The notes below the pieces were generated by a model that did not search any database, was not told the DNA's origin, and saw nothing but the letters and a program-made list of their open reading frames with translations. Below are positions 3,311 to 24,196 of a DNA stretch of 26,497 nucleotides, piece by piece; position 1 is the stretch's first letter, and each line of letters begins with the position of its first letter. This DNA is from a bacterium. GTDB taxonomy: Bacteria; Zhuqueibacterota; Zhuqueibacteria; Oceanimicrobiales; Oceanimicrobiaceae. The position numbers and the translations under genes are program-made. Where the stretch lies: NCBI GenBank assembly GCA_037446635.1, contig JBBIIG010000021.1, positions 1 to 26,497 of the forward strand, written 5' to 3'.

Positions 3311-4189
3311 TTACTCAGGAAAATAGCTTGCGCTGAGTTTTCCAGACGGCGCCGTTTCATAAAACTCAAAGACATTAATGATGATCTCGTCCTTCCGCCC
3401 GTAAAAGTGCCGATACAACTCCGCCACCGGCCGCAGGTTGAACTTCAGCGCGGCGCTGATCAGGCCATCGCAGGGGTCGTCGTGGTCTTCGTGGCGCAAA
3501 TAGAGATTGGCCTGCACCGGATACGATTCCAGAAACGCGGCGGGACTCATGAACAGCGCGTAGTCGTGCTCGGCGCAGCCGCCGCCGTGGGTGATGGCCA
3601 GCGTCAATGTGTCGCCGGAGATGGAAAGCGATTGCAGATGAAACGGATCGAGCTGCAGCGAATCCGGCGGCTGCTCGGTGATGATCACAAAATTCTCATC
3701 CGGACCGGCATCGCCGATCACCTCGAAATCAATTCGCTGCGGCTCGGGAGTTTCAAGACGATCAAACCGCAGCCGCGGCTTCGCCCAGGCGGTGTAGCGG
3801 CCCGGCGGCAGCAGGCTGTGCTGCACCACGGAATGCCAGTTGTAAATATGAACCAACTTTTGGGACGCCGGCAACGTCCCGCGTACAATCACGGTCGCGT
3901 AAGCGAAGCCGTCGTCGGAAGTTCCCACCAGCAGACCCTCGCGATAAAGCTCAAAGGTGACAAACGGGCCGGTGTCGGGATTGGTGAACGGCTGATCTTT
4001 GCCGGTCAAATTTTGCAGAGAATAATTGAAGGTCACATCCTGTCCCACTTCAAACGTTGTGGTCTGCTGGCCGGCGGGATCGGTGAGATAAAATTCGCTG
4101 AGGAGGCCGTCGTGGAATTGGAAGAAAGCAGGTTGGTCGCAGCTCAGAAGTAAAGCCAGTATCCAACCTAAGAGTAATTTATTTTTCAT
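3311..4189 (-). CDS. Two-domain lipoprotein: BsuPI-like Ig-fold N-domain plus NigD-C-like (GGGC..H) C-domain
   Basis: Lipobox LLSC after MKNKLLLGWILAL (alternative TTG start at 4195). The N-domain FEVGQDVTFNYSLQNLTG...FAYATVIVRGTLPA...W...LLPPGRYTA resembles BsuPI. The C-domain is ISGDTLTLAITHGGGCAEHDYAL...FLESYPVQANLYLRH...DDPCDGLI...FNL. Confidence 0.6.
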   Translation of the reverse strand: MKNKLLLGWILALLLSCDQPAFFQFHDGLLSEFYLTDPAGQQTTTFEVGQDVTFNYSLQNLTGKDQPFTNPDTGPFVTFELYREGLLVGTSDDGFAYATVIVRGTLPASQKLVHIYNWHSVVQHSLLPPGRYTAWAKPRLRFDRLETPEPQRIDFEVIGDAGPDENFVIITEQPPDSLQLDPFHLQSLSISGDTLTLAITHGGGCAEHDYALFMSPAAFLESYPVQANLYLRHEDHDDPCDGLISAALKFNLRPVAELYRHFYGRKDEIIINVFEFYETAPSGKLSASYFPE

Positions 4190-4231
4190 GTTCAACCAGT
4201 AAGTCTATCGCTGATGTGCATATTCTGAAAC

Positions 4232-4615
4232 TCATTGAATCACCATCGTCGTATCTACCCCGGTGCTGTCGAACGGCCAAAACCGAAATGTGTAGGTACC
4301 GGGCGACGGAACGGTAATGCCTGCTGGCGCATCTAAACTTGATATTACTGCAATACAAGGATCATTGTTAATTCTCTTCGCAATAATTTTGAAATTTATC
4401 TCAGTTCCGGAGATCGTGCGCTCAGTTCGAACAAATTCCCAACAAGGTTCGGGAAGGCCACATCGCACAATAAAAGAAACGCTTCGCCCAGAAACAGCCG
4501 CGCTCTTAATTAAATAAGCAGGAACTGGAACGGGCTCTGGCAGCCTCTCCCCAGAGTCGAGCAAGCATCCGGAGAAGCCAAGCAAAATGGAAAGGCAAAT
4601 ATTGGTTGTTCTCAT
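4232..4615 (-). CDS. Small lipoprotein, beta-sandwich with PEPC...NDPCIAVI Cys pair
   Basis: Lipobox FSGC, 127 aa, GAGG RBS upstream, Ig-like C-terminal strand PGTYTFRFW. Confidence 0.7.
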   Translation of the reverse strand: MRTTNICLSILLGFSGCLLDSGERLPEPVPVPAYLIKSAAVSGRSVSFIVRCGLPEPCWEFVRTERTISGTEINFKIIAKRINNDPCIAVISSLDAPAGITVPSPGTYTFRFWPFDSTGVDTTMVIQ

Positions 4616-4635
4616 AAATTGCCTCTAATCAGAAT

Positions 4636-5616
4636 CTAAATATTTTCCGGCCTCCCGCTAACCAACACTAGCGTCACTGCTTTGCCGCCGTCTCGCAATT
4701 CATCAAAAATAAAAAGCTGCGGGTAAACCCGGTAGTCATTTAAAAGCCGCCGCACCAATTTGTAATTCAGAGCAGTGAGAACCCGACCCGTTTCCGGAAT
4801 ATCGCTCAAAGCAAAACCAAATTCCATTGGCCAATATCGAATTGGAATGCCCCACACCTGAAAATAACTGCCGATGTTTTCCTCGAAAGTCGGGCCTTGG
4901 CGGGATAAGCCAAGGGTAAAAAGCGAATCGCCTTCCCAAAAAACAATCTCATAGAGCGAAACCTGTCTATCGAGTTGATCCAGATAATTGAATATCTGAC
5001 GGTACTGTTCGGTGTTATTGAAATAAATTCTTTCACCGGAATGATCCCCCAGCTTGATGGCCTCTGAAAATGGCCAGATATGAATGGCAAAACTCTGATA
5101 AATCAGCAGGGTGCCAGAATCCGGGTTCTCGAGAATCATTCCGTTGACTCGGTGGAGCTCGCTCAAAAGAACATTCAATTTCTTCGGATAATCGGCGCCA
5201 TCTTCAACCTCTACGGTTTTGGTGGCGCCATCTGAGGTGTAAGAAATGGCATAGAAAAATCCATCCGCTATGGGATGCTTCGGCTCATACTTTCTGCGCA
5301 GCGCGATGAAGTCCGCCTGGTCAAATGCGTCTTTGAGACTATCCAGTTGCACTGGCGTCAGCTCATAATGAACAACAAATTTTTGAGGGTAGTACCTGTG
5401 GCTAAGTTCGGCCTGACCGTTTTCATCAATTGTAGTTTGCACGTGAATGCCCCCGAATCCGCCGCTGATGGTGTAAGCGATGTGCGCCGGATGGGAGTAA
5501 TCCCAAGGGTTGCTGAAATCGCAGGCGGTGGACACCAGGAATATCGCCGCGACAAAATAATAACCGAGGAAAACCTTCGTCATCGAAATCTTAACGATTA
5601 AGAAGCCGAACCTCAT
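4636..5616 (-). CDS. Lipoprotein with N-terminal emfourin (protealysin/M4 inhibitor)-like domain and unknown C-domain
   Basis: Lipobox STAC. Motifs YTISGGFGG...LTPVQLDSLKDAF...F.AL...ADGFFYAISY...KTVEV...PKKLNVLLSEL. ATGA overlap with the serpin stop (alternative start at 5583). Confidence 0.65.
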   Translation of the reverse strand: MRFGFLIVKISMTKVFLGYYFVAAIFLVSTACDFSNPWDYSHPAHIAYTISGGFGGIHVQTTIDENGQAELSHRYYPQKFVVHYELTPVQLDSLKDAFDQADFIALRRKYEPKHPIADGFFYAISYTSDGATKTVEVEDGADYPKKLNVLLSELHRVNGMILENPDSGTLLIYQSFAIHIWPFSEAIKLGDHSGERIYFNNTEQYRQIFNYLDQLDRQVSLYEIVFWEGDSLFTLGLSRQGPTFEENIGSYFQVWGIPIRYWPMEFGFALSDIPETGRVLTALNYKLVRRLLNDYRVYPQLFIFDELRDGGKAVTLVLVSGRPENI

Positions 5617-6848
5617 AATTTTGGCTCCACAATTTTGCCCATAAAAAGAATCGCGCCGGAATGATGATCGCGAATCACAAAAAGGAACGGACGGTCCACG
5701 CGCATGAGCGGATACGATGGCACCGACGTTTCCGCGACTTCCACCGACGTCACCGCCGCGGCTTCCGTGCCTTCTTCATCGACTTTCACAAACGTTTTGT
5801 GGATGACTTCGTCGATATAAAGACCGCCCGGTGCGTACATGCGGGTGAAATCGGCAGCGCCGCTGAAAGCAATTTCCATCCCCAGCGCTTTCAGAACGTT
5901 GTTCATCGTCAATTCATATTCAAGCGTGAATTTCGGAAATTGCAGCTCCGTAGTACGATCGACAAAACTGCTTAGCCAGGCATCCCAATTCTCCTGAGTC
6001 AACTCCGCCAGCAGCGCGTTGACATCGAGGGGAAGTTTGGGAAGAAAGATGGTCATGCTAAACAGCTTGTCGCCGTACGGCAAATCCACGGCCTGGAACA
6101 AATCGTTTTCAAAGTATGACAGCGTGCCCGTCATGTTCATCATCTTGCAGGGAATTGGCGAACCGTCTAATTTCGTGAACTGGTCATCGCGGGTGTTTTC
6201 TTTTTTGAACTCGAACGTCCACGTGCCTTTGAAATAAATGGCGTTGATGAGGAACATCACGGTATTCCAATCGATCGCATCGGGTTTGACGATCTCCGAA
6301 ATTTTGCCGTGGGTTTTATCCTTCACCCACGCGTTCATCAGCGCCGCGGCGGCTTCCGCATCGTTGAAATTCACCGCGCGCACCACCGCGTCGAAAAATT
6401 GCTTGTTAACATCGATGAAAGTTTGCTCGAACGCCATGCCCTCGCGGTACCAGATGGAGTTGCCAATCTCAAACGTGACTTTGCGATCGAGGTTGGTGAG
6501 CAAGTCAATCAAGCTGCGATAGGTTTGGTTGATGTCGTCTGTGGTCATGCCGGTGAATTCCAGCGTCTGTTCCATTGCCGCCTGGGTTTCGCCGGCAGCG
6601 CCGTTGAGGGTCATGCCCAGTGCCATCGACACGCTCAGCGGCGAGATGAAAATGTTTTTGTCCGCGTCTTCCTGCCGGTTGATTTCGTTGAACAACTTCA
6701 ACCCGAATTTGTTGTCGGACGCCACCAGACTTTTTTCAAGTGCCGTTAATTCGCGGGCTTCCGGCGCCACCGGATTTTGCTGGTGGATGCAGCGCGTCAA
6801 AAGCAGGGTCAGAAGACACAGCGCGAAGAATGTCATTTTTTTCATCAT
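5613..6848 (-). CDS. Serpin-family serine protease inhibitor (probable lipoprotein)
   Basis: NIFISPLSVSMALGMTLNGAAGET, NAWVKDKTHGKI, LINAIYFKGTW, inhibitory hinge EEGTEAAAVT and signature DRPFLFVIRD...ILFMGKI. Signal peptide ends LLTRC. Confidence 0.97.
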   Translation of the reverse strand: MMKKMTFFALCLLTLLLTRCIHQQNPVAPEARELTALEKSLVASDNKFGLKLFNEINRQEDADKNIFISPLSVSMALGMTLNGAAGETQAAMEQTLEFTGMTTDDINQTYRSLIDLLTNLDRKVTFEIGNSIWYREGMAFEQTFIDVNKQFFDAVVRAVNFNDAEAAAALMNAWVKDKTHGKISEIVKPDAIDWNTVMFLINAIYFKGTWTFEFKKENTRDDQFTKLDGSPIPCKMMNMTGTLSYFENDLFQAVDLPYGDKLFSMTIFLPKLPLDVNALLAELTQENWDAWLSSFVDRTTELQFPKFTLEYELTMNNVLKALGMEIAFSGAADFTRMYAPGGLYIDEVIHKTFVKVDEEGTEAAAVTSVEVAETSVPSYPLMRVDRPFLFVIRDHHSGAILFMGKIVEPKL

Positions 6849-6855
6849 AGCAAAA

Positions 6856-7275
6856 TCACCTCACAAGTCTTGAAATTTTTAAAAGCGCGCGATAATCAGA
6901 ATCGCGCGGTTGGCGATCCGATTGCGGATACGGATCCAATTGCAACAGCGTGATGCGATATCCAATCGTATCAACGGGTTGATGGGCGAGGGTATCCGAC
7001 TGAGCAACGAATCCGGGAATGGCCAGCTCCACCTGAACAGAATCCGCGGCCGTTTGCAGCAGCAGCCCAATGCGGGCGCGGCCCGCCCAGACGCAAATCG
7101 CATCGCTGGGACAGCGCGACTCCTCCAGCACTTGTTGAAATTCGATGCACAGGTTGTCTGGCGTTAAAACCTTCTCGCCGAAGTTCAAAAAAAATGGTTC
7201 ATCCAAGTTCACTGGACTCAAAATACCTTCACAAGCACAGAAGAGCACGAGCGCAAGCAACGCGACTTTTTTCAT
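6856..7275 (-). CDS. Small lipoprotein with SRCPxDxxCxWAG motif
   Basis: Lipobox FCAC, motifs ESRCPSDAICVWAG and YRITLLQLDPYP, AGGAG RBS. Ends 7 nt before the serpin start. Confidence 0.8.
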   Translation of the reverse strand: MKKVALLALVLFCACEGILSPVNLDEPFFLNFGEKVLTPDNLCIEFQQVLEESRCPSDAICVWAGRARIGLLLQTAADSVQVELAIPGFVAQSDTLAHQPVDTIGYRITLLQLDPYPQSDRQPRDSDYRALLKISRLVR

Positions 7276-7310
7276 ATCATTACTCCTAAAAAGTACCCTT
7301 CGAGTTCATC

Positions 7311-7766
7311 TTAGTCCCCTTCTGCAAAACCTCTAATGACGATTTTAGAGGCCGGAAAAAGCAACTGCTCCGCACTCAAAATCATGCTCGAAATCCGCAC
7401 GGCTTCATAACAGCCGTTTTCTTTTTTCTCCTTGCCGGCCTGCCACCAAAACAACACCGCTTCGTCTCCGGGTTCATATTCCCAAATTTCATTCACCACC
7501 AGCGAACGTTGCTGAAAGGGCGGGATGCGATTCGGATCGTCCGGGCAACTTTGAAGTCTAATAAGAATGGAAGCCAAACTGCCGCGCTCAAAGGCGGCAA
7601 AATAGATGGCTGTGCCGGTGGCGTTCACAATGGTGAGCTCGCCGTCTATTCCGGCGATGATTTCAAACGGATTGGAATTGCTGGAGCAGCCAACCAGAAA
7701 TATCAGGATCGAGACAATCTCACAACGAAATAAGCGTTTCCAAAAACTGTTTGTTGCTTTTGCCAT
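7311..7766 (-). CDS. Hypothetical lipoprotein
   Basis: GGAGG RBS, lipobox LVGC, 151 aa, two further Cys in the mature part. Confidence 0.75.
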   Translation of the reverse strand: MAKATNSFWKRLFRCEIVSILIFLVGCSSNSNPFEIIAGIDGELTIVNATGTAIYFAAFERGSLASILIRLQSCPDDPNRIPPFQQRSLVVNEIWEYEPGDEAVLFWWQAGKEKKENGCYEAVRISSMILSAEQLLFPASKIVIRGFAEGD

Positions 7767-7797
7767 TACTTTTTCCTCCAGCCGTCTGGTAGAAATT

Positions 7798-8409
7798 TTA
7801 AAACTTAAGCTGCAGCGACGACATCATCGGCAGCACGTCGTTGCTGTGGTAGCTGGTGGCGAATCTTCCCTCGATCAGCCAATTTAAATTGGAGCGGATG
7901 GGAAGCGCCGCGCCCAGGCCGATGGCGATCCAGCCTTCCGAGAAATTTTTGTGGAATTGCGGGCGGCCATCATCTGCTGGCATGACGACAGGAAATCTCT
8001 CCTGAAGCTGCTCAAACGCCACACCGCCCAACACGCTGATAAATGGAGAGACGATCTTTCCCGGACTTATCAATCTCGTTCCAATTAAGAGGTTATAAAC
8101 CTGAGCATCGCGCCCATCGTTTTGCGCTTGAGCTTTGTTTGATCGCAGCTCAAAAATCGGCGGCTCGACGTCAAACGGGTAGCGCTGGTAATCAAAACCT
8201 GCAGTAAGTGCGATGGAGCGGTTCAACGAAAACGCGCCGCCCAAATGGACGCCCCAGCCGTTGCCGTAATTGCCAAGCTTGCGGTTTTGAGACAGATTGA
8301 TCACGTACCCGCCGCCGAACTCAATTTGAAATTTGGATTGCGAAAATGAAAACGAAGCGGGAAGACATACAATCGCTGATCCTATTATAATTAGCCCACT
8401 CTTTTTCAT
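7798..8409 (-). CDS. Small outer-membrane beta-barrel protein (OmpA/OmpW-like, ~8 strands)
   Basis: Signal peptide, alternating beta-strands (FQIEFGGGY, WGVHLGGAF, SPFISVLGGV, IAIGLGAAL, WLIEGRF) and C-terminal LQLKF (BAM signal). Confidence 0.8.
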   Translation of the reverse strand: MKKSGLIIIGSAIVCLPASFSFSQSKFQIEFGGGYVINLSQNRKLGNYGNGWGVHLGGAFSLNRSIALTAGFDYQRYPFDVEPPIFELRSNKAQAQNDGRDAQVYNLLIGTRLISPGKIVSPFISVLGGVAFEQLQERFPVVMPADDGRPQFHKNFSEGWIAIGLGAALPIRSNLNWLIEGRFATSYHSNDVLPMMSSLQLKF

Positions 8410-8435
8410 TGCATCCTGACCTCGCTAATGAATGA

Positions 8436-8477
8436 TTCAATCTCTACCCCGTTCACCAACGCTGATTTTAACTCAAA
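8436..8477 (-). pseudogene. Relic 3' end of a paralog of the 9042..9629 gene
   Basis: Intergenic DNA translates to FELKSALVNGVEIE, versus IQLQSAVVNGVEIN at the C-terminus of 9042..9629. Confidence 0.65.
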
Positions 8478-8483
8478 CGAACT

Positions 8484-9017
8484 TCATCCTTCGATACAAT
8501 ATTCAAATGCGAATGGATTAATGTTTGTCCGAAAACGTCCGTTGGTGAACTCGATCTTATCAAAGGGCGCTTCCTCATTTTTTACTCGGAGGTTGAAGAT
8601 TCCGCGCAACTCTCCGCTGTTCTTATCATAACTTTCAATCTCCACTCGATTGGGATAACCCGTATCCAGGAGATATCGCCGAAACGGAATGCAAAGTCCC
8701 AAGTCCCAGTACCCCGTCATTTGCTGATTGATGGCAACCCGGCCTTTAGGCGCCAGTTGGAAGGTTAACATCAAAGTCCGATCCCACTCAGCAGCCGAAC
8801 CTCTTAGAACGAGCTCACCTTCCTGGTATCCATTTGGGTTGGCGAAAAGATATAGATGATACTCCCGACCCTCGATGCTTACCGTCAACTGGCCGTCAAA
8901 AGGCTCTGGAATTTTCAGCGGTTCAAGTTCAACGTGCTTCGGTTCGAAGGTGTGTTGACAAGAAAAAATGACCGCCAACAAACCTGCCATCAATAATATA
9001 AATCTGAGCAACTTCAT
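8484..9017 (-). CDS. Hypothetical beta-rich lipoprotein
   Basis: GAGAGG RBS, lipobox IFSC, 177 aa, two additional Cys. Confidence 0.75.
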   Translation of the reverse strand: MKLLRFILLMAGLLAVIFSCQHTFEPKHVELEPLKIPEPFDGQLTVSIEGREYHLYLFANPNGYQEGELVLRGSAAEWDRTLMLTFQLAPKGRVAINQQMTGYWDLGLCIPFRRYLLDTGYPNRVEIESYDKNSGELRGIFNLRVKNEEAPFDKIEFTNGRFRTNINPFAFEYCIEG

Positions 9018-9041
9018 TGAAACCTCTCTGCTGTGATGATA

Positions 9042-9629
9042 CTAATTGATCTCCACCCCATTCACCACCGCGGACTGCAATTGAATGATGCCAATTTGCC
9101 CGCGGATCTCCACGCGCCCGGCGCCCGGGGCGTACACTTCCCAAAGCTCATCATCGATGGCCGGCGGGTAATCAAAAAACACTTCGATGCTGTTTTGGAA
9201 ACGGCCCGCGGGAACCTTCGACTGAAAATTTCTTTTGTTGATTTTGGCGATGTATTCCCCGTAACTTTCCCAACTTTCGCCCACGCCGCGGTTGAAGTCG
9301 ATGTACAGCGCATCCTGGCCCTGCCAGTTGATGAAAACGCGACCGCGACCGTCGGTGCGATAGTAGGTGGTATCGGGTTGGACCGCCAGATCAAACGTGC
9401 GGCGGAAAACGAAATAATCGTGCGCGCCGATGGTGGTGATTCCGACAATTTCGTGCTTGAGCCAGTAAGTGCCGGACGGGTAGGTCAACGAATAGGTCCA
9501 GCGGTTGCCGACTTGCAGGGGAAAATAGCCGAGGCCCGCGGTTTCCGGCGCGGTTGGAGCGTGATCGCACGCCCAATAAATCAACCCTGAACTCAACAAC
9601 AAAACCACGCAAATTTTTGGGCGCCTCAT
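9042..9629 (-). CDS. Lipoprotein of the YFPL..GN.W.Y / VPAG.F / YAPG.G family (TapB/DUF3108-like)
   Basis: GGAGGTG RBS, lipobox YWAC, motifs YFPLQVGNRWTY, KVPAGRFQN and YAPGAGRV. Confidence 0.75.
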   Translation of the reverse strand: MRRPKICVVLLLSSGLIYWACDHAPTAPETAGLGYFPLQVGNRWTYSLTYPSGTYWLKHEIVGITTIGAHDYFVFRRTFDLAVQPDTTYYRTDGRGRVFINWQGQDALYIDFNRGVGESWESYGEYIAKINKRNFQSKVPAGRFQNSIEVFFDYPPAIDDELWEVYAPGAGRVEIRGQIGIIQLQSAVVNGVEIN

Positions 9630-9635
9630 TTTACT

Positions 9636-10004
9636 TCACCTCCAAAAACTCGCGAAGATTTGCCACCTACTTTTGGCGCGCATGTTCAAGGTGGCAATCG
9701 CCGTGACCTCAAGCGGCAGGTAGCGGCCATCATCAAGCGGATTAAGGCTTGGCAAGTTGCCGCTAAAGATGACTGGCAAGCCAGGCTTGCGGAATGGCTC
9801 CGGCAAAGTGTGCGTTGGCAAATAGGCGATGGTCGTGTCGGCGTTAGCATAAATGACAAATTGCTTCTCGCGAATTCCGATCTGCTTGATAATGCCGAGT
9901 TGGTTAACGAGGTCCGGCGGCTTCTCTTCGTCGAAGAGGTTGCAGCCGCCGGCCCAAAATATTATTAGATTGAACGCAAAAATTTTAGATAGCCTATTCT
10001 TCAT
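9636..10004 (-). CDS. Small hypothetical lipoprotein (possible OB-fold)
   Basis: Lipobox AGGC, motif YLPTHTLPEPFRKPGLPVIFSG. Confidence 0.7.
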   Translation of the reverse strand: MKNRLSKIFAFNLIIFWAGGCNLFDEEKPPDLVNQLGIIKQIGIREKQFVIYANADTTIAYLPTHTLPEPFRKPGLPVIFSGNLPSLNPLDDGRYLPLEVTAIATLNMRAKSRWQIFASFWR

Positions 10005-10124
10005 GATCCGCTAGTCATGGATTGGATGCTGAAGCTTTGCTTCGGTTCTACACGGGGACCGCAGCCCCGCTTGTGCACTCAAATCAACCCACCATTTCAA
10101 CGGTTTCACCAGCAAGCGAGACAG

Positions 10125-13100
10125 TCACTTCAGCAACATCATCTTTTGCACGGCGCGCAACTGGCCGTTGGCCTCGAGTGTGTAGAAATAGATGCCGCTC
10201 GGCAACACCGCGCCGGAGAGATCGCGGCCGTCCCAGCGGATGGCGTGTTGGCCTGCCGCCAATCGTCCGCCCTCGAGTGTGCGCACTTCCTGTCCCAATA
10301 GGTTGAAGATGCGCAGCCGCACCGTCATCTCCGCTGGCAATCCAAACTTAATGAGGGTTTCGGGATTAAACGGATTCGGGTAATTGCCGTACAGCTCGAT
10401 GGCTGTTGGCACCGGTGGCTCATCCTCCACGCTGGTGACCGAATCCAACACGAAGTTGATCTCCAGCGCGCCATAGCCGACTTCGATCACCTGGGCATCG
10501 GCAAAGTTGGCGACGCCGTTGTTGAACTCGCCCTTAAAATTCAGATGTGTGGCTTTCGCGCGGTAGCGGCCGGGCGGCACGCTGTGCAATTCGTACAAGC
10601 CTTCGGCGTTGCTCTGTGCAAATGACACCGCCTTCTCCGTATCGTTCAACAAATAAATCGTGGCGCTGCGGATCGGTTTGCCGTTGCCATCGGTGACTTT
10701 GCCGAACACCTGCGCGCCGCCGCTTGCGCCCGGCGCGGCCAGGTCGCATTCCGGACAGCCGCGCAGCCACAGAATCGGCGAAAGCGCGAAATCGATGCCG
10801 GTCACCGGCTGGTTTTCAACAACGGCGATTACTTTGGCCTCGGAGGGATCATAAACATTGTCGTAGTATTCGCCAATATAGCCCGGTGCGAAGCTGAAGA
10901 GGTAATAATCGCCGGCGGGCAGGCCGGTCAATTCATAGCTGCCATCGGTTTGAGTGATGGTGTTGAAAAATTTTTCGGAATCAGGGAAAACCGCCGGCGT
11001 CGCCACTGGCCGGGCAATGACCATGGCTATTTGCAGCGCGCCGCTGTTCCATTCATCGGTGACGGTGCCGGAGATGACGCCATCCCCTTCATCACGGGGA
11101 GTGAGCGCAAAATTGACCGCGGTGGTTTCACCGCCGACTACTTTCACTTTCGCAGCCAACTCCGGCACCGGCGCATTTTCAAAATACTCGAACGCGCCGT
11201 TCGAATAAACCGAAACATAATACTCGCCCTGTGGCAGCCACTCAACTTGATAATTGCCAAACTCATTAGTGATGGCGTGATAGGGCCACCAAAATCCCGG
11301 CCAAATACTCGGGCGAGCCAGTCCATCTTCGAAGTAATTGAACCCGATGGGAGTAATCTCCACGTAGGCGCGGGCAATTGGCGCGCCGTTCACTTCGTCG
11401 GTGACGGTGCCGGCAATTGCGCCGTAATACGGCCGCAGCGTGAGATCGAAGTTGATGTCATCGCGCTGAGCGCCATCGGCTAATACGATGAGTGTAGCTT
11501 CGCTGCGGCTGTCTTTGTGATCGAACCACTGCTGCGCGAAATTCTGGTTCTCCCAATATTGCGAGTAGGCGACGTACTCACCCGCGGGCAGCCCCTGGAT
11601 GCGATAGCTGCCGTTGCTGTCGGTGCTGGCATAAGCCCAGATCGACGAAGTCGCACCATTGGCCGGATCGAGGGTAGCGTCAGCGGAGGTGAGTTGAATG
11701 TAAGCATACAGGATTGGCTCGCCGGTGTGGCGCAGCACGCGCCCGGAAATCCTCGCGGTGCCGGGACGGATGGGCAGCTTAAAATTCGTGGGCTGGCGAT
11801 CAGTCGCGCCATTCACTATCACCGACATGGCCTCTTCGGGAGTTTCGGCATCTGGCCAGTAGCGATTGACATACTGCCAGCCCACTTGTGCGTACGCGGA
11901 AACCAGGTATTCGCCATCGGGCAAATTGTCAATGGTGTAATTGCCGCGATGATCGGTGTAGCCATAAGCCCATACCTGCACGCCACCGCTCGACCAATCG
12001 AACGGCGCATGCGCTTGCACCACGGCGCCGGCAATGGGATCATCGTTGGCATCGACCACTTTTCCAAAAATGGTCCCGAAAGTGGTGGGCACGTCGAGAT
12101 CGAAATCGATGCCGGGAGTTTCCACTTCGGTTTCCACTACCACGGCAATAGCTTCATTGATGTCGGTGACGTTATCGTAGTACTCAATCAAATAAAACCA
12201 TTGATTCCACATTTGCGCGGAGACGATATAGTCGCCCGCCGGCAAACCGACGATTTGGTAAAATCCGCTTTCATCGGTAATCGCTGAGCCGTAGCCATAA
12301 ACCACGCCAACTCCAGAGTCGGGCTGCGGAATGGTGCCATCGGGGCGAAAGTCGGTGTAGGCCTGCACATAAATGCCGGAGAGCGGTTTGCCAGTCACCG
12401 TGGTGACAACGCCGGAGATCATGCCGCCGCGGCTGAGGGTGAAGTCGATGCCGTCGTAGTGATTCGGCTCCACCACGTCGATGGCATCGGCCGCATCGAA
12501 CGTAGCCGCTTCTTGGTAGTATTCGTTCAAATAGCCGTCGGCCCAAACGTAGGCATAATATTTTCCGGATTTCATGCCGGTAATTTCGTAGGTGCCGTCA
12601 TCGCGGGTTTCGGTCCAGCCGTAGAAGAAAGGGTTGTCCGGCGAGAACACATTGACGTAAGCGCGGGCGATCGGGTGACCGTCGAACTGCGCGGTCACTT
12701 TGCCGGAAAGGCTGGCGCGTCCGGAATTGATTTGTTCGAGGAAGAAATCGACGCCGCCAGTAGTTTCGCCTTCGCGCACCGGCACCGTGGTGGCGTCGCT
12801 GAAATCGGTGACGTTGTTGTAGAATTTCGGGACGTACGTATCGGCTAACGCCAGCACGTAGTAGTCGCCCGGTTCCAATTCGTGAATCACGTAACGGCCA
12901 TTGGGTTCGACTTTTCCGAAATAGGCGGTGCTGGTGCCCGTGCTGTCCGCAAGCTCCGCATCGCTGCGCCAGGCCACTACCGACGCTGAATAGATATAAC
13001 GCTCGGAAACGCCCGAAATGACGCCAGCAATCGATCCACCGCCAGCGATTTTGTTCAGGCCGGCAGTCTGCGCCTGTTTGTAAATACCTTCAAACGTAAT

Positions 13101-13253
13101 CGCGGGTTGCTTATGGGCCGCGCGCAGCAGATTGATTGAGCGGATGATTTGTTCTTTTTTGAGTTGATTAAAATTGGGGTTGGAACTCTTTGCAAAATTT
13201 GAAACGGCAAAACTGAACAACAGAAACAGCGACAAACAGGTTTTCAGGCGCAT
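10125..13253 (-). CDS. Secreted repeat protein: 8 carboxypeptidase-regulatory-like (prealbumin-like) beta-sandwich repeats plus T9SS type A/FlgD-Ig-like C-terminal domain
   Basis: Signal peptide and GGAGG RBS. Eight repeats of G.I.G.V...PI..A.V...T...G.Y.I..L..G.Y...YY...A..V.V...GIDF.L. C-terminus ELYGNYPNPFNPET.I.F...IFNLLGQEVRTL...WDGRD..G..LPSGIYFY...KMMLLK. Confidence 0.9.
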   Translation of the reverse strand: MRLKTCLSLFLLFSFAVSNFAKSSNPNFNQLKKEQIIRSINLLRAAHKQPAITFEGIYKQAQTAGLNKIAGGGSIAGVISGVSERYIYSASVVAWRSDAELADSTGTSTAYFGKVEPNGRYVIHELEPGDYYVLALADTYVPKFYNNVTDFSDATTVPVREGETTGGVDFFLEQINSGRASLSGKVTAQFDGHPIARAYVNVFSPDNPFFYGWTETRDDGTYEITGMKSGKYYAYVWADGYLNEYYQEAATFDAADAIDVVEPNHYDGIDFTLSRGGMISGVVTTVTGKPLSGIYVQAYTDFRPDGTIPQPDSGVGVVYGYGSAITDESGFYQIVGLPAGDYIVSAQMWNQWFYLIEYYDNVTDINEAIAVVVETEVETPGIDFDLDVPTTFGTIFGKVVDANDDPIAGAVVQAHAPFDWSSGGVQVWAYGYTDHRGNYTIDNLPDGEYLVSAYAQVGWQYVNRYWPDAETPEEAMSVIVNGATDRQPTNFKLPIRPGTARISGRVLRHTGEPILYAYIQLTSADATLDPANGATSSIWAYASTDSNGSYRIQGLPAGEYVAYSQYWENQNFAQQWFDHKDSRSEATLIVLADGAQRDDINFDLTLRPYYGAIAGTVTDEVNGAPIARAYVEITPIGFNYFEDGLARPSIWPGFWWPYHAITNEFGNYQVEWLPQGEYYVSVYSNGAFEYFENAPVPELAAKVKVVGGETTAVNFALTPRDEGDGVISGTVTDEWNSGALQIAMVIARPVATPAVFPDSEKFFNTITQTDGSYELTGLPAGDYYLFSFAPGYIGEYYDNVYDPSEAKVIAVVENQPVTGIDFALSPILWLRGCPECDLAAPGASGGAQVFGKVTDGNGKPIRSATIYLLNDTEKAVSFAQSNAEGLYELHSVPPGRYRAKATHLNFKGEFNNGVANFADAQVIEVGYGALEINFVLDSVTSVEDEPPVPTAIELYGNYPNPFNPETLIKFGLPAEMTVRLRIFNLLGQEVRTLEGGRLAAGQHAIRWDGRDLSGAVLPSGIYFYTLEANGQLRAVQKMMLLK

Positions 13254-13314
13254 ACCGCCTCCTCATGACTTGAAGTAATTTTGAGAAAGATAACGGCTCA
13301 TGTCAGTTTCAGAG

Positions 13315-13380
13315 TCGCAAACTTAACGCAGAGAAAAAAACTAAAAAATCACCTTTGCGATCCCTTGCGGCTTTGCGTGA
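13315..13380. repeat. Degenerate ctttgcg-type short repeats with upstream inverted partial copies
   Basis: tcgcaa/acgcagag followed by ctttgcga, cttgcgg and ctttgcgtga in the intergenic region. Confidence 0.35.
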
Positions 13381-13389
13381 GCTTTGCTT

Positions 13390-13971
13390 TTAATTGACGT
13401 CATTGGAAAAAGAAGCCCCTCCCTGCCCATGCGGAAAATATTTGCCCTTCACAGAGGCTTCGATCAGTTTCGAGGTGCCGCTGGCAGAGCGGTACTCCAC
13501 CATCCCGACCCCGGGCGCATATTTGCATAGCCACTCGCTGCCGACGTTGTCTTGAACTTCAAATTTGACTTCATACAAGTTGCTGAATGCGCCGGCGGGT
13601 GCCGAGGCTATTGATCCGGAATTCAGGAGCGTGCCTCTAATAACGCCGTAACTATTCCAGCTATCCGGCGGCACGCGATCGAAATCGACGAGCACGTAAT
13701 CCTCGCCAAAGTGATGAACCAACACCTGGCTTCCCTCAACGCGGTAATAGTTGGTGTCGCGATACGCACTGTTTTCAAAGCTGCGTTCAAAGACAAAATA
13801 TTCTTTTTCATTGATGGTTTTGACGCCCACCACTTTGAGGAACCATTTGAAATCCCGCTCAAAATTCTGGTAGGCCCATTGATTGCCAACATGCGCCGGA
13901 AAGTAAACGGCTGCCAATGGTTGCTGACGAGTTTTTAAAGCGCTGGCTGGATAAACACTCAACATAAGCAT
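13390..13971 (-). CDS. Paralog of 9042..9629 (TapB/DUF3108-like) lacking a lipobox; N-terminus possibly truncated
   Basis: YFPAHVGNQWAY, YFVFERSF, DTNYYR, APAGAFSN and YAPGVGMV align with 9042..9629. The signal is short and atypical, with in-frame stops just upstream. Confidence 0.7.
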   Translation of the reverse strand: MLMLSVYPASALKTRQQPLAAVYFPAHVGNQWAYQNFERDFKWFLKVVGVKTINEKEYFVFERSFENSAYRDTNYYRVEGSQVLVHHFGEDYVLVDFDRVPPDSWNSYGVIRGTLLNSGSIASAPAGAFSNLYEVKFEVQDNVGSEWLCKYAPGVGMVEYRSASGTSKLIEASVKGKYFPHGQGGASFSNDVN

Positions 13972-14047
13972 ACCAAAAATGATTCAGTTCAAAATCTAAG
14001 GCTATGAGGCAGTTGAAAAAGTCAACCCATTAATTTTTCCACGCCCC

Positions 14048-14905
14048 CTATAACTTGACGATCTGCTCGACAGCGCTGCCGCCGGGCACGGATTTCAACG
14101 TGGCGCCGATCAACACTTCGCCCGTGAGAACATTGCCGGCATTATCGCGCCCATCCCAGGTGACTTGGTAGGCTAGGCTCTCGCCTGCCAGCAGCGAAAT
14201 GCTCGAAAGCACCGCCGCGAAAACTTTATCGCTCGACCAATGCCACAAAAACCCACCCGACTGATTGAACGAGCTTTCAGTGGATGGGCGACGGACGTAA
14301 AAATCAAATATCTGACTGGAATTGAAACGCAAATCGATCGGCCCATTACTGACGTTAGTAACAATGAGCGTCAAGTCAAACTTGTGATCCTCAGCCAGTG
14401 GCTTGACATCCAATTTCAGACTCAGCCCATTTTCAGTGACGCGGTTCTTCAGCGCCACCATGCCATCGACGATGCGCTGAAGCGGCTCCGGCGCTCCAAA
14501 ACGATCGGTGAACACCGTGTTTCTCTGATTACCTTGAATAAACAATATCCGGTAAAAAAAGGCGTCAGCGACCCGCGGGTCAACAAAGGGGCCGCGCAGG
14601 GAGAGAAAATCATTTTGGGCAAACAGGTCGATCAACTCCCGCAGTTCGGCATCGGAAAGCTGCACCGTCCATTGCTGATTGCCTTGCTGGTTATCGGTGA
14701 AAACCGCCAGGCCTGATTCATCCACCAACAAGTTTTGCAGAACGCCGGCAATGCTACCAGTAATTTGCACGGCCAACAGGGTATCGGCAACACTATCGTG
14801 GCGGGTGGAGCTTTCCTCGTTGCTGGCGTCTTCACTCAGGATAGATGGAAAATCACAGGACGAAACCATGAGTGCTATACTCAAAAGCAGAAAGTAGAAT
14901 TTCAT
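14048..14905 (-). CDS. Lipoprotein fusing an emfourin-like domain and a BsuPI (intracellular proteinase inhibitor)-like domain
   Basis: Likely start MKFYFLLL at 14905 (GAGG RBS, lipobox VSSC). N-domain ITGSIAGV...LSDAELRELIDLF...F.SL...ADAFFYRI...APEPLQRIV. C-domain LTLIVTNVSNGPIDLRFNSSQIFDFYV...LWHWSSDKVFAAVL...L.AGESLAYQVTWDG. Confidence 0.8.
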   Translation of the reverse strand: MKFYFLLLSIALMVSSCDFPSILSEDASNEESSTRHDSVADTLLAVQITGSIAGVLQNLLVDESGLAVFTDNQQGNQQWTVQLSDAELRELIDLFAQNDFLSLRGPFVDPRVADAFFYRILFIQGNQRNTVFTDRFGAPEPLQRIVDGMVALKNRVTENGLSLKLDVKPLAEDHKFDLTLIVTNVSNGPIDLRFNSSQIFDFYVRRPSTESSFNQSGGFLWHWSSDKVFAAVLSSISLLAGESLAYQVTWDGRDNAGNVLTGEVLIGATLKSVPGGSAVEQIVKL

Positions 14906-14951
14906 ATTTAAACCTCGTGAAATGAATACAACAGAATTTGCCTGTAATTCA

Positions 14952-14967
14952 AGCAACGGATGTGCCA
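14952..14967 (-). promoter_or_regulatory. Sigma-54 (-24/-12) promoter for the lipoprotein/inhibitor array
   Basis: Minus strand TGGCACATCCGTTGCT matches TGGCAC-N5-TTGCW with exact spacing, 46 nt upstream of the 14905 ATG. Confidence 0.85.
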
Positions 14968-14977
14968 GAAATAATGA

Positions 14978-15002
14978 AGCCCTCCGGGCGCAGTCGAGGG
15001 CT
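14978..15002 (-). terminator. Probable terminator hairpin downstream of the beta-barrel gene
   Basis: Minus strand agccctc-11 nt-gagggct followed by tcattatttct. Confidence 0.45.
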
Positions 15003-15030
15003 AAAAACACGCTGCTTCCTTGGGGTAGGT

Positions 15031-15066
15031 TATCAGATTTTTGAGGAGAGTATCAGAAAACTGAGG
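15031..15066. promoter_or_regulatory. Tandem enhancer-like sites (putative UAS for the sigma-54 activator)
   Basis: Direct repeat tatcagatttttgagg / tatcagaaaactgagg, 20 bp apart. Each has a TCAG-N4-(C/T)TGA dyad and lies ~65-100 bp upstream of the -24 box. Confidence 0.65.
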
Positions 15067-15100: not shown

Positions 15101-16174
15101 CTAAAAGCGAATATCAAACCCCGTGGTGACGAGAAATTTGCGGTAAAAGCGGCTGCGAATAATGGACTCGTTGTTATAATACGCCAGCCGCACCAGTGCT
15201 GTCAGCCCGGGGTTGAAGTCTTTGGAGAGATCGGCGATGAAAAAATTGCTCTCTTCACGTTCGGTATCGAGGTCGATGGGAAACATCGGCACAAAGTCTT
15301 CGGTGTAATGCTTGTTCTGATACGCGCCATAGCCGCGCAGCCAGACACCCGCGAACATCGGCGTTCCAAAAAAGAGCACAATTTGGTGACGGTTGTAGCT
15401 GAATCCTTGTGTGTTGGAATCGTTATGAATAAACGAATAACTCAAGTTGATGAGAAATTTTTGGGTGTAATTTAGCTGTAGGAAAACTCTATAATTATCG
15501 TCTTCTTGCTTACGGCCAAAAGCCGGATCATTGGGGTTGAAGTTGAGCGTGCGCTTGTAGCGGATTTGCCGAAACGAAAACTCGAGGCTGCTGGCGATGG
15601 TCGATGTCAACTTGCGGGAAATCTGCCATTTGATTTGATGATCGGAGTAATCGAAAATGGTAAAATTTTGATAGTTGATGCCCGCGGCTTGATAAGCGAG
15701 TTCGCTGGCAATCTTCGAGAAAAACGGCGTTTGAATAAAAATTTCGCCAAAGCCGTTGACGTAATCGAGATTGTCGTTCAAATAAAGTTTGAGCCGGCCG
15801 GAGCCGCGCGCGCCTACCACCATCTTCGACAGCTTGGCGCTGCCCGCTATTTCCACCTCGTTAATGAGTTTATTCTCGATTGCGTTTTGCAAGAAGGTCT
15901 GCAGTCCCGTGTGGAAAATCAAGCCGACGCGGGTTTTGGGAGAGTTGCGCGTGGCCTGGGATTGAAACAGAAAGCGCGCCGAGGAATCTCGAATCTCACG
16001 GGTCGTATCCGAAGCGGGGACCTCGCGTATGTTGCTGTCGAACTCATAGCTCGTCTGCAAGCGGTTCTTCACCCGCCATGGCGGTGCCGTCTGCCCGCTT
16101 CCTTCCTCGGGCACGCTTAACAACGCCACACAAAAAATAAAAGTCAGATTACGTCTTAGTCCGTCTTGTGCCAC
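15101..16174 (-). CDS. Outer-membrane beta-barrel protein of unknown function
   Basis: GTG start and signal peptide, YEFDSNIRE N-terminal strand motif, amphipathic aromatic strands throughout, C-terminal TGFDIRF. Confidence 0.8.
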   Translation of the reverse strand: MAQDGLRRNLTFIFCVALLSVPEEGSGQTAPPWRVKNRLQTSYEFDSNIREVPASDTTREIRDSSARFLFQSQATRNSPKTRVGLIFHTGLQTFLQNAIENKLINEVEIAGSAKLSKMVVGARGSGRLKLYLNDNLDYVNGFGEIFIQTPFFSKIASELAYQAAGINYQNFTIFDYSDHQIKWQISRKLTSTIASSLEFSFRQIRYKRTLNFNPNDPAFGRKQEDDNYRVFLQLNYTQKFLINLSYSFIHNDSNTQGFSYNRHQIVLFFGTPMFAGVWLRGYGAYQNKHYTEDFVPMFPIDLDTEREESNFFIADLSKDFNPGLTALVRLAYYNNESIIRSRFYRKFLVTTGFDIRF

Positions 16175-16249
16175 CCTAAATTCTTTGATTAAGAATTGAG
16201 CTGCGGATGCATTTTGTAAGACCCTACTTTTGTTAAAAGATACAGAGAG

Positions 16250-16378
16250 GTAATGGAGTGCTGGAGTAATGTAACTCGAAGTCCGGCTTTGAGATGCAAT
16301 CCCGAAGCGCGGGGATTGCTTCTCGACTCATTATTCAAAAATCCATCACTCCAGTACTCCATTGCTCCATTACTTCGA
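16250..16378. repeat. Degenerate 8-bp repeats in inverted arrangement enclosing a hairpin
   Basis: taatggagtgctggagtaatg ... tccatcac tccagtac tccattgc tccattac. Internal stem gagatgcaatccc...gggattgcttctc (16291-16324, one mismatch). Confidence 0.7.
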
Positions 16379-16392
16379 TTACCCCCGGCGCA

Positions 16393-17403
16393 TTACTGCG
16401 GCTTTTTGCTCTCCTTCGCGGCTTTATAAAAAGCCTCAGCTTGCCGCGCCAAGCTATCGGCCTGCGCCTTCAGCCGCTGTTCCTGTTTCTTCAAATTGGC
16501 GATCACGTCTTCCAATTCTTCGGGAGAAAGCGTGCCAAAATCGAAGTCCGTTTGCCCGAAAATCAGACTCTGTTCAATAGCCTTGCCGATTTGCCCGCGG
16601 CCAGCCTCGTTACCGAACTGGCCATCCGGGGAGGTGGGAGCGCCAGCCTCGCCAGTGAGGTCCTGCACATCGAAGGTGTTGACGTTGCCCATTGCCTCTT
16701 CCTGTTGATCGAACACGGAGAGATCGGTCATCAAATCGCTCATACGACTTTTCAACTCCATCTCCTTCTTCAAGTCCGCGGTCTGCTTTTCGATGCGGGC
16801 AGCGGTAGCGCGCAGTTTATCCTCCTGATCCTTCAAGAGATCCGCTTTCTGTTCGATCTGTTTCGGGGAATCGTCCGCTTCAATGGCAAGTCGCGGAATT
16901 TTAAGGTTCATAATCTTCGATTCGCCAATTTTCTCCTTCGTCGCCTCGGCGCGCAAACGCAGCCGTTCGATCTCCGCCAGCAACTCGCGCTGTCGCGTTG
17001 ACTCCAACTTCTGATTCTCTAACTGCTTCAGCCGCTTCGAGATCTCGGCATCGTAAAGATAAACCAGGCGATTGGCGTTCTTCACGTACGCATTCTGCAG
17101 TGACTGCACTTGCGAGTCGATCTTCTCGATTTTCCTGGTGACGTCCTGCGAGTCCTTCAGCAGGCGTTCCAACCGCTGCTGCTGAAAATAGCTGCGGCTT
17201 TCCTTCGCCTTCAAATCCTGAATTTCTTTGGCGTAAGCAGCCAGATCGCGGATCAAAATAGTGCGCAGATTACTCTGCTGCTCAATCAGAGAATCCAGGC
17301 GCGCCAATTCCTTTTCCAACGACACAATTTCCTGAGCCAGCAAATTAGCGCCGAACAGCGCCGACAGAATCAGAATTATTGAAATGTGCTTTATGGTTTT
17401 CAT
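16393..17403 (-). CDS. Periplasmic coiled-coil protein of unknown function
   Basis: Sec signal (LLA-QE) and heptad-rich K/E/L/Q helices. Motif DDSPKQIEQKADLLKDQEDKL...RMSDLMTDLSVFDQQE, with a G/P-rich loop before the last helix. Confidence 0.85.
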   Translation of the reverse strand: MKTIKHISIILILSALFGANLLAQEIVSLEKELARLDSLIEQQSNLRTILIRDLAAYAKEIQDLKAKESRSYFQQQRLERLLKDSQDVTRKIEKIDSQVQSLQNAYVKNANRLVYLYDAEISKRLKQLENQKLESTRQRELLAEIERLRLRAEATKEKIGESKIMNLKIPRLAIEADDSPKQIEQKADLLKDQEDKLRATAARIEKQTADLKKEMELKSRMSDLMTDLSVFDQQEEAMGNVNTFDVQDLTGEAGAPTSPDGQFGNEAGRGQIGKAIEQSLIFGQTDFDFGTLSPEELEDVIANLKKQEQRLKAQADSLARQAEAFYKAAKESKKPQ

Positions 17404-17414
17404 ATTCTTGCCTT

Positions 17415-17461
17415 TAGTTGTTCATAATGTTTTAAAACGTCAGGCCGTAGATGAACAACTA
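17415..17461. repeat. Perfect 11-bp inverted repeat spanning the regulator / coiled-coil intergenic region
   Basis: tagttgttcat (17415-17425), 25 nt, atgaacaacta (17451-17461). Confidence 0.65.
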
Positions 17462-17469
17462 TCGTGCCA
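17454..17469 (-). promoter_or_regulatory. Possible second sigma-54 promoter overlapping the regulator's last codons
   Basis: TGGCACGATAGTTGTT has a perfect -24 box and correct spacing, but the -12 box is TTGT rather than TTGC. Confidence 0.4.
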
Positions 17470-19791: not shown

Positions 19792-19793
19792 AA

Positions 19794-20167
19794 ATGGGCT
19801 TAACGGTTTTGGAAATCGAAGTTGCTAATCCGGCCAATCCCAAGAAAACCGAGAAAGTGGAATTCCTAATCGACTCGGGTGCGGTTTATTCGGTTGTTCC
19901 TGCTGCGATCCTAAAAAAGTTGGGAATCAAACCGTTGACGAAGGAGACGTTTCGGTTGGCCGATGGCAGTAAAATTATTCGTAAAAAAGGCATGGCTTTG
20001 TTAAAATATCAGGACAAAATTGGCGGCGCGGATGTAATTTTTGGTGAGAAGGGCGACCACCAATTGTTGGCACGCTCGAGGCATTAGGGTTGTCATTGGA
20101 TCCGTTGAAGCGCGAGCTCAAACCTATGCCGATGGTGCTGGCGAGTATGGCGGCTTCGTTCATTTAG
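19794..20167 (+). pseudogene. Clan AA (retropepsin-like) aspartyl protease, frameshifted near 20070
   Basis: FLIDSGAVYSVVP...LGI...F.LADG in the first frame. The expected tail TLEALGLSLDPLKRELKPMPMVLA continues in a shifted frame from 20072 to TAG at 20165-20167. Confidence 0.8.
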
Positions 20168-20423
20168 ACGGGATTTTGCGTCAGACTTTTTTATCCATAT
20201 AACACAGCGCCTATGCAAAAAGCAACCCCGTTACAAATAAGGACTGGCAATTTTATTCGCAATGGCATTGCTCTTTGGAGTCAGCGCTGCCCTTTATGTA
20301 TGGTACACTGATAGGAAAAGTGATCGCAAATCCTCAACCAAATGAGACCGCCAGCATCGGGAGGGTATCTCTTTGCAGGAAATATCGAGGAATGAACAAC
20401 GGAGGTGTATTCTTCCATTTTAT

Positions 20424-20645
20424 TTATTCCTCCATTTTCTTATTGCGCAAAACGAAAAGCCCTGAAATTGTCAAAATAAAAAGAACTGCGAGTCCTAATC
20501 CAAATAGAAAAACGTTGAGCTTCTGTTCCGAAAATGCCTGTGCAAGAACCAATGCAGCAAAAACAAGTTTTCCAACATCAACTATAGTTTTCGAGAGCAA
20601 TTCCAACTGTTGATTATTAACCCTCCCTTCCGAAAAAATCAACAC
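20424..20645 (-). CDS. Small two-TM membrane protein (DUF6722-like)
   Basis: 73 aa: LSKTIVDVGKLVFAALVL plus a second hydrophobic helix and basic tail. GTG start overlaps the kinase stop. Confidence 0.55.
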   Translation of the reverse strand: MLIFSEGRVNNQQLELLSKTIVDVGKLVFAALVLAQAFSEQKLNVFLFGLGLAVLFILTISGLFVLRNKKMEE

Positions 20646-23175: not shown

Positions 23176-23193
23176 TTTATTCTCCTCTTAACT

Positions 23194-23303: not shown

Positions 23304-23308
23304 TAGGA

Positions 23309-24046: not shown

Positions 24047-24057
24047 AACTCTCCTAC

Positions 24058-24186: not shown

Positions 24187-24196
24187 ACATCAATTT

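Follow-up and report, generated by a model that had tools for sequence, protein, structure and literature searches.

In the window, defined here as the whole stretch analysed (26,497 nucleotides at the start of contig C21; genome size 4.64 Mb), 13 minus-strand open reading frames (ORFs) between positions 3311 and 14905 form a closely spaced array behind a perfect sigma-54 promoter and a tandem palindromic enhancer. The genes were numbered g1 to g13 along the direction of transcription. We interpret the array as one copy of a regulon which is spread across the phylum, is controlled by sigma-54 and serves envelope defence through a core of protease inhibitors of several classes, and assign a probability of about 0.6 to this interpretation; protease inhibition is predicted from the sequences of the encoded proteins. 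The parts have known relatives; the assembled regulon appears to be undescribed. To our knowledge, prokaryotic protease inhibitors are considered rare, and the cases reported so far consist of either a single gene or an inhibitor paired with a protease. If four or more inhibitor classes are pooled in one regulated array across the phylum, this would represent a new type of envelope defence.

The survey set consisted of 167 genomes of the phylum (candidate phylum KSB1, as indicated by the source names of close homologues), including the unpublished genomes G158 and G162, on which none of the claims depends.

Gene array

Intergenic gaps range from -4 to 136 nt, and a pyruvate dehydrogenase E1 gene follows the array after 538 nt. 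The genes would be transcribed as a single unit. Ten of the 13 products (g1, g4, g5, g6, g8, g9, the serpin g10, g11, g12 and g13) have a signal peptide with a lipobox-type cysteine, judged by eye, in agreement with the number given in the first-pass annotation of this DNA. The lipobox of the serpin (LTRC) is atypical, and a cysteine was present at the same place in the homologues read. Ordinary signal peptides were found in g3 and g7, and only a short, doubtful one in g2. Thus, the description of the array as 13 co-directional exported ORFs stands for direction and spacing, whereas export of all 13 is uncertain because of g2. According to a crude lipobox regular expression, which matches 225 of 3612 ORFs in the genome, the array is the stretch of 13 ORFs densest in lipoproteins (seven, compared to four in the next best). 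Peptidase domains were searched in the 13 ORFs by profile scans (Pfam and a second family scan) and none was found, as expected from the earlier statement that the array lacks a cognate protease.

The spacer between g6 and g7 (8410-8483), in frame with the ATG of g7, corresponds to the C-terminal end of a gene of the g5/g2 type (LKSALVNGVEIE compared to LQSAVVNGVEIN). Judged from this similarity, it is a deletion remnant of such a gene and records cargo turnover. Short palindromic repeats were observed at 2825-2907 and 16247-16376, with dozens of copies in the genome (97 and 41 BLAST hits). An Rfam search gave no match, and no informative repeats were found.

Promoter, enhancer and regulatory genes

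The sigma-54 box is located 48 nt before the true ATG of g1 (14905). Ten such perfect sites exist in the genome, which also has an RpoN gene. Since sites with at most one mismatch occur in the window at chance level (3 found, 2.9 expected), the case for the promoter rests on conservation. A strict box within 250 nt upstream of the g1 lipobox cysteine was found in 28 of 40 homologues (43 rows, of which three truncated ones were dropped), compared to 0.5% of random windows; in several of the homologues missing the box, another cargo gene is located between promoter and g1. The single sigma-54 promoter proposed earlier is, therefore, real by conservation.

The enhancer was recognised in the upstream sequence shared by relatives. 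Its two copies are located 77 and 97 nt ahead of the -24 box, at a spacing of 20 bp. Of 36 g1 promoters, 33 are preceded by the enhancer, 23 of them by the doubled form (random windows 4.0% and 0.6%), a count which is not independent because the motif was derived from those same promoters. The exact tandem pattern occurs in 23 of the 167 genomes, and a reversed control pattern in none. A sigma-54-like box with no more than one mismatch was found no farther than 260 nt from 16 of 20 further tandem sites, where about 5% would be expected by uniform-base arithmetic, and six of the 20 are located directly behind the head barrel gene introduced below. Only one of 285 loose sigma-54 sites in the genome is combined with the enhancer, namely the array promoter. 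Enhancer and promoter were also found ahead of serpin operons without g1 in five genomes (G028, G033, G038, G119 and G128).

Upstream of the enhancer, a head module of four genes encodes a sensor histidine kinase, an NtrC-type activator, an exported coiled-coil protein and an outer-membrane beta-barrel. The first-pass annotation recognised the promoter and left the enhancer and this conserved module unmentioned. The order kinase, NtrC, coiled coil, barrel, enhancer, promoter and cargo recurs phylum-wide, and the head barrel is present in 104 of 167 genomes, mostly as a single copy. A recognition helix common to the NtrC orthologues fits a conserved operator, and the activator presumably binds the tandem enhancer. 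Barrel and coiled coil probably assist sensing. SlipAM matches were weak (6 of 28 members of the barrel family, best 5e-6). The barrel in the window scored 19.8 bits at a cut-off of 22 and gave no TPR match, and so falls short of a Slam or type XI lipoprotein exporter; the weak matches leave lipoprotein export as an alternative role. A significant PDB sequence match was not obtained for the barrel.

Between the kinase and NtrC genes of the window (18994-20645), which are adjacent in relatives, are an N4/N6 DNA methylase gene, a short aspartyl-protease-like ORF and a DUF6722 ORF. Directly upstream of the kinase (22054-25816) are genes of bacillithiol biosynthesis type (glycosyltransferase, PIG-L deacetylase, BshC), likewise in G006, G007 and G021. 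A one-mismatch sigma-54 box at 17455-17469, in the 3' end of the NtrC gene and 52 nt before the coiled-coil gene, is possibly a second promoter; in G166, enhancer and promoter are located ahead of the coiled-coil gene.

Inhibitor-type domains

Five inhibitor-type domains were identified, in g1, g10, g11 and g13. The first-pass annotation had named an inhibitory serpin, two emfourin-like domains and one clear and one divergent BsuPI-like domain, and these assignments held in the profile tests, that of the divergent BsuPI-like domain tentatively; for the clear BsuPI-like domain (BsuPI being the family of the Bacillus subtilis inhibitor IPI), structure comparison agreed as well.

The serpin g10 matches the Pfam model over its full length (E-value 8e-119, 397.6 bits, profile positions 2-370 of 370). 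Its closest solved relative is miropin (5ncs, E-value 1.6e-81), and in the alignment the hinge EEGTEAAAVT shows the E-x-G-T-E-A-A-A pattern of small residues. From its sequence, g10 is a serpin of the inhibitory type, predicted to inhibit.

For the emfourin family (PF20242, cut-off 27 bits), Pfam gave E-values of 5.9e-5 for g11 (23.8 bits) and 0.0015 for g1 (19.3 bits). In a profile comparison by hhalign, the N-domain of g1 was aligned to ten protealysin-linked emfourins of the phylum with a probability of 98.6 (E-value 7.5e-16, 94 columns), and these ten match the emfourin structure 6zyg at an E-value of 4e-5. The N-domain profile itself had no direct match to 6zyg. An aspartate (Asp114 in g1) aligned with Asp70 of emfourin, which we take to be a zinc ligand, is invariant in 33 of 33 rows. 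On these profile and alignment data, the N-domains of g1 and g11 are homologous to emfourin. The emfourin hallmark of a cytoplasmic protein in an operon with a protealysin-like M4 gene was not found for g1 and g11, which are lipoproteins; the only M4 match of the genome is on another contig.

A single-sequence fold of g1 was unusable (pLDDT 38), and an alignment-based model was used instead (43 sequences, pLDDT 88). Residues 158-285 of this model superimpose on B. subtilis IPI with a Z-score of 14.7 (rmsd 2.1, 112 residues). IPI was also the first-ranking Foldseek match for this domain (TM-score 0.80 of the target), and the BsuPI model of Pfam (PF12690) was matched at an E-value of 1.9e-14 (53.9 bits, cut-off 22.9). 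Residues 62-68 of IPI, with Thr-Gln, have been proposed as a reactive wedge (PMC3901451). The wedge sequence FTQAF aligns with FAAVL in g1 and with F-T-x-A-L in orthologues, the P1 position (x) being variable. The N-domain of g13 was linked to the C-domain of g1 by hhalign (probability 89.5, E-value 2e-6, rank 2 of 276 comparisons). Pfam gave no BsuPI match for g13 and an E-value of 0.001 for one orthologue. By this comparison, the g13 N-domain appears to be a divergent IPI-like domain. The C-domain of g13 is weakly NigD-like; both scores remained below the cut-offs for a full-length NigD family match (NigD_C 21.4 bits, cut-off 22.6; NF051862 18.9, cut-off 60). A scan of a genome collection with g1 yielded one unrelated locus only, and alpha-2-macroglobulin was searched in the genome and not found.

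Conservation in related genomes

Array genes co-occur across the phylum. The neighbourhood survey found g1, the conserved first gene, in 19 of 20 genomes of the same family and in 58 of 167 across the phylum. Promoter and enhancer are conserved across genomes and the cargo varies from genome to genome, the same families reappearing in changed orders behind the same promoter. In genomes having both serpin and head barrel, the two are at most 15 kb apart in 36 of 78 cases, and in 29 of 64 outside the own family; only published genomes were counted, and fragmented assemblies were taken as misses. In G026 and G091, the serpin is located between the NtrC and coiled-coil genes.

Further inhibitor classes are added in relatives by tandem serpins, which differ in their reactive loops, and by TIMP-like proteins. 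In G059 and G060, stand-alone emfourin-like lipoproteins are encoded next to serpins. Since known copies were overlooked by the Pfam TIMP model (matches in 1 of 167 genomes), a protein query was used for the TIMP-like genes. Of the 21 TIMP-like matches in published genomes, 12 are within 10 kb of a serpin or g1. An N-terminal CxC is the inhibitory signature of TIMPs, and a CxC directly after the signal peptide was present in all five TIMP-like proteins checked. Peptidase motifs (S8, HExxH-type and trypsin, by regular expression only and without merging overlapping loci) occurred in 2 of 507 same-strand neighbours of relatives' arrays. One of the two, in genome G013 (L078:6896-10189), is a subtilase with intact D/H/S triad and type IX-like tail, which stands in a row with two serpins and genes of the g4 and g5 types.

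Candidate inhibitors and remaining cargo

Two small lipoproteins with disulfide loops, g12 and g9, are candidate inhibitors. A full search returned 171 relatives of g12, and a word-indexed search none. The protein is similar to the YB1M beta-sandwich family, with a score of 0.91 and the family assigned to 57% of the top cluster. Two cysteines are conserved (97% of 127 rows), and the loop has the form C-[I/P/A/L]-[Q/A/D]-V-[I/L]; it recalls what we take to be the Cys-Pro-Met-Val loop of the Streptomyces subtilisin inhibitor and serves as a lead only. The g9 loop R-C-P-x4-C-V-W-x-G is invariant in 108 rows, and in the structure atlas g9 fell into unnamed clusters only, with scores under 0.9. Neither g9 nor g12 had a profile link to a known inhibitor or a significant PDB sequence match, and profile links among g12, g9 and IPI were not significant. 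Tentatively, and as a possible rather than a probable extension, the uncharacterised disulfide-loop lipoproteins (g12-type, g9-type and NigD-like) may be new families of standard-mechanism inhibitors within an inducible anti-protease immune system, where a trans-envelope sensor of barrel, coiled coil and kinase would detect proteolytic attack and turn on a modular inhibitor library. If true, a function would be assigned to widespread lipoproteins of Bacteroidota type through these families.

The remaining genes are listed with all other features in Table 1. The secreted protein g3 contains eight CarboxypepD_reg-like repeats, and SprA is present in the genome. A domain similar to g5 follows the TIMP domain in proteins of relatives (by eye), and an outer-membrane protein (OMP) family similar to g7 is found in relatives' arrays. 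The Pfam scan of relatives covered 101 of 162 listed array or serpin-neighbour proteins and 44 further ones; VIT-vWA, META and unnamed proteins were additional cargo types. DUF2330 was tried as a VIT-like domain and rejected (probability 0.1). Proteins with VIT-vWA are located beside or near serpins in six genomes (L022, L058, L098, L137, L140 and L148). In inter-alpha-trypsin inhibitor the heavy chain is not the inhibitory chain, and for this reason the VIT-vWA neighbours were not counted as inhibitors. A secreted family of about 490 AA (amino acids; N-terminus like QYISLKSIPVASGDQF) follows second enhancer sites in G012, G011 and G008; in G047 it is flanked by two serpins (L186, L187, L189 and L141).

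Table 1. Features of the window. Domain limits are residue numbers.
Feature	Positions	Strand	Basis
g13, lipoprotein, divergent BsuPI-like N-domain and NigD-like C-domain	3311..4189	-	profile comparisons
g12, small beta-sandwich lipoprotein (YB1M-like), disulfide-held C-[I/P/A]-[Q/A/D]-V-[I/L] loop	4232..4615	-	candidate inhibitor
g11, lipoprotein, emfourin-like/DUF6438 domain (GGFGG, ADGF) and a further, C-terminal domain	4636..5616	-	profile, alignment
g10, serpin lipoprotein, predicted inhibitory hinge EEGTEAAAVT at 358	5613..6848	-	Pfam, miropin alignment
g9, lipoprotein, R-C-P-x-x-x-x-C-V-W-x-G disulfide loop, candidate inhibitor	6856..7275	-	alignment
g8, lipoprotein	7311..7766	-	lipobox Cys
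g7, small outer-membrane beta-barrel-like protein	7798..8409	-	Pfam E-value 0.086, C-terminal Phe
g6, lipoprotein, weak Riean_0653 match (E-value 0.001, far below cut-off)	8484..9017	-	
g5, lipoprotein, paralogue of g2	9042..9629	-	sequence comparison
g4, small lipoprotein	9636..10004	-	lipobox Cys
g3, secreted protein of 1042 AA, type IX-like C-terminal domain, common cargo, not an inhibitor family	10125..13253	-	profiles
g2, paralogue of g5 (38% identity), weak DUF3108-like resemblance, doubtful signal peptide	13390..13971	-	
g1, lipoprotein, emfourin-like N-domain (41-158) and IPI/BsuPI domain (159-285), conserved first array gene	14048..14905	-	profiles, model
Sigma-54 -24/-12 promoter TGGCACATCCGTTGC	14953..14967	-	perfect TGGCAC-N5-TTGC, conserved in relatives
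Tandem palindromic enhancer TCAGA-WW-TCTGA, two copies	15033..15044 and 15053..15064	.	shared upstream sequence of relatives
Outer-membrane beta-barrel	15101..16174	-	weak SlipAM/BBP2 matches
Exported coiled-coil protein	16393..17403	-	adjoins barrel gene in mapped loci
NtrC-type sigma-54 activator, presumed array regulator	17459..18868	-	Pfam; recognition helix GIKTSALYYKLEKYG kept in head orthologues
Sensor histidine kinase (HAMP, HisKA, HATPase), head module gene 1	20645..22057	-	Pfam; adjoins NtrC gene in relatives

Proposed model and alternative explanations

In the proposed model, the kinase, probably together with coiled coil and barrel, would sense an envelope threat and phosphorylate the NtrC-type activator, which would bind the tandem enhancer and fire the sigma-54 promoter. 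Lipoproteins and type IX-like secreted proteins, encoded in a long row of genes with rapid turnover, would be the output. The core which recurs among them would consist of the serpin (serine and cysteine proteases), IPI wedges (subtilases), and emfourin-like domains together with the TIMP-like proteins of relatives (metalloproteases). These would shield surface and periplasmic proteins from proteolysis by the proteases of neighbours or of the cell itself. The other members would be further envelope-protective proteins, some of them possibly inhibitors of undescribed families. Two uses follow from this work: a list of candidates for new inhibitor families, chosen by guilt by association, which are small and easy to express, and a defined set of activator, enhancer and promoter which can be tested in a laboratory host.

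Several observations weigh against an envelope-defence regulon with an inhibitor core. Inhibitor-type domains are confined to 4 of the 13 genes, the other nine having no inhibitor assignment, and g3, g7 and g2/g5 look like other envelope proteins. Cargo unlinked to inhibition is equally common in relatives (g3-type, DUF3160, DUF2330, BNR propellers, DUF6174 and OMP barrels). The emfourin-like domains of g1 and g11 are below the Pfam cut-off, although some orthologues pass, and the loop of g1 in the window reads GSIAG instead of the family's GGFAG. For the N-domain of g1 (14432-14785), the best match listed for the two-domain model was the eukaryotic Mago nashi (Z-score 13.0, rmsd 3.5, 121 residues), an unexpected fold neighbour; 6zyg was absent among the listed structural matches, which excludes nothing. 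Whether IPI is an inhibitor is under dispute, and MEROPS has dropped the family (PMC3901451). Serpins occur in 121 of 167 genomes, often in unrelated settings, and serpin presence is not significantly associated with the head barrel (Fisher p-value 0.11). The 36 promoter rows of the enhancer count, apart from their dependence on the motif, contain a truncated locus as well as an intragenic site. In some operons behind the enhancer, the first gene encodes DUF2330 or an unnamed protein, and no inhibitor was found in the stretch examined (G056, G064 and G125). In G001 (L197:783-1514), a HipA-like kinase gene follows a tandem enhancer with a perfect sigma-54 box; it is the sole non-exported first gene seen behind the enhancer.

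Parts of this evidence would also fit a general outer-membrane stress or surface-remodelling regulon comparable to EcfO-Reo or Dma-NigD, with the inhibitor folds as minority passengers or binding domains. Both g13 and many relatives have a NigD-like domain, an outer-membrane stress regulon is known to have NigD lipoproteins among its outputs (PMC13114119, PMC10927553, PMC9308784), and most of the cargo is structural or unnamed. We consider this explanation unlikely, since four unrelated inhibitor families recur at the loci with their functional motifs kept, and since, in distant families, the serpin gene is physically linked to that of the regulator. The multi-class arsenal of the first-pass annotation is, accordingly, retained for the presence of several inhibitor classes, with more in relatives, and narrowed by the small share of genes having them and by a NigD-like domain which points to an outer-membrane stress response.

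More improbable is self-control in trans, in which the lipoproteins would guard the envelope against the cell's own M4 and S8 proteases during secretion, as potempins inhibit own proteases (PMC9890683). Nine S8 (subtilase) matches and one secreted M4 protease with type IX-like tail (C10:20935-24405) are encoded elsewhere in the genome, besides SprA, and the intact subtilase of G013 stands within a serpin-bearing row. None of the own S8 and M4 genes, however, is on the array contig or behind an enhancer-promoter pair. Genomes with protealysin keep a separate cytoplasmic emfourin beside it, which agrees with the earlier remark that emfourin is normally a cytoplasmic partner of protealysin, and the varied reactive loops of tandem serpins would suit diverse external targets. 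The own S8 and M4 enzymes are possible targets all the same, as for potempins; foreign targets are realistic too, as miropin, exposed at the surface, inhibits the proteases of a neighbour (bioRxiv 10.1101/2025.09.05.674453). Of the shield against foreign proteases suggested earlier, the multi-class inhibitor domains, the promoter and the co-occurrence were confirmed, and the restriction to foreign targets was not, given the own enzymes and the subtilase of G013.

A hotspot at which unrelated lipoprotein genes gather behind g1 with no common regulation or purpose is very improbable: turnover is high, including the gene remnant between g6 and g7, and gaps of 120 to 136 nt are located on both sides of g3, but the same families in changed orders follow the same promoter across many families, and terminator-like sites are at chance level (26 compared to 23).

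Comparison with known systems

A description of such a regulon was not found in the literature searched, to which most subscription papers did not belong, and the earlier statement that no such operon had been described agrees with this. PrsK/PrsR (PEP-CTERM) and ZraSR are kinase/NtrC pairs which, with an enhancer, control exported proteins. For these, NCBIfam scores at the locus were below the cut-offs, neither an exosortase nor a Zra periplasmic protein was seen at the locus, and the cargo differs.

Emfourin (M4in, PF20242, 6zyg) is paired with protealysin (PMC9505478). The array domains share with it their homology, the GGFA loop (of the family) and the conserved aspartate. They differ in being part of lipoproteins, fused to IPI or to a second domain, and in having no adjoining M4 gene. 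With B. subtilis IPI/BsuPI (PF12690, 3isy), g1 shares the Ig-like fold and the wedge. Secreted, protease-unlinked IPI homologues are already known (PMC3901451); the version in g1 is fused to an emfourin-like domain, is encoded first in a regulated array and has a variable P1 position.

In Bacteroidota, a regulon for outer-membrane stress yields NigD lipoproteins, one of which drives vesiculation (PMC13114119, PMC10927553, PMC9308784). The EcfO-Reo and Dma1-Das1 systems resemble the array locus in that an envelope-sensing regulator with a beta-barrel part drives NigD-type lipoproteins (PMC13114119, PMC10927553). They consist of an ECF sigma factor and a membrane-spanning anti-sigma factor, whereas the array has a kinase, an NtrC activator and sigma-54, and its NigD-like match is weak and limited to the C-domain of g13.

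Another likeness in kind is to miropin and the potempins of Tannerella forsythia, multi-class lipoprotein inhibitors of the outer membrane. Each potempin gene is located beside the gene of its cognate peptidase (PMC9890683). The arrangement of potempins and KLIKK proteases, with the inhibitor gene directly upstream of its peptidase gene, was not found in the 13 ORFs (no peptidase), and peptidase motifs were rare among relatives' neighbours (the 2 of 507 given above). Unlike potempins, the predicted array inhibitors are pooled in a protease-poor row under a sigma-54 enhancer, in an uncultured phylum.

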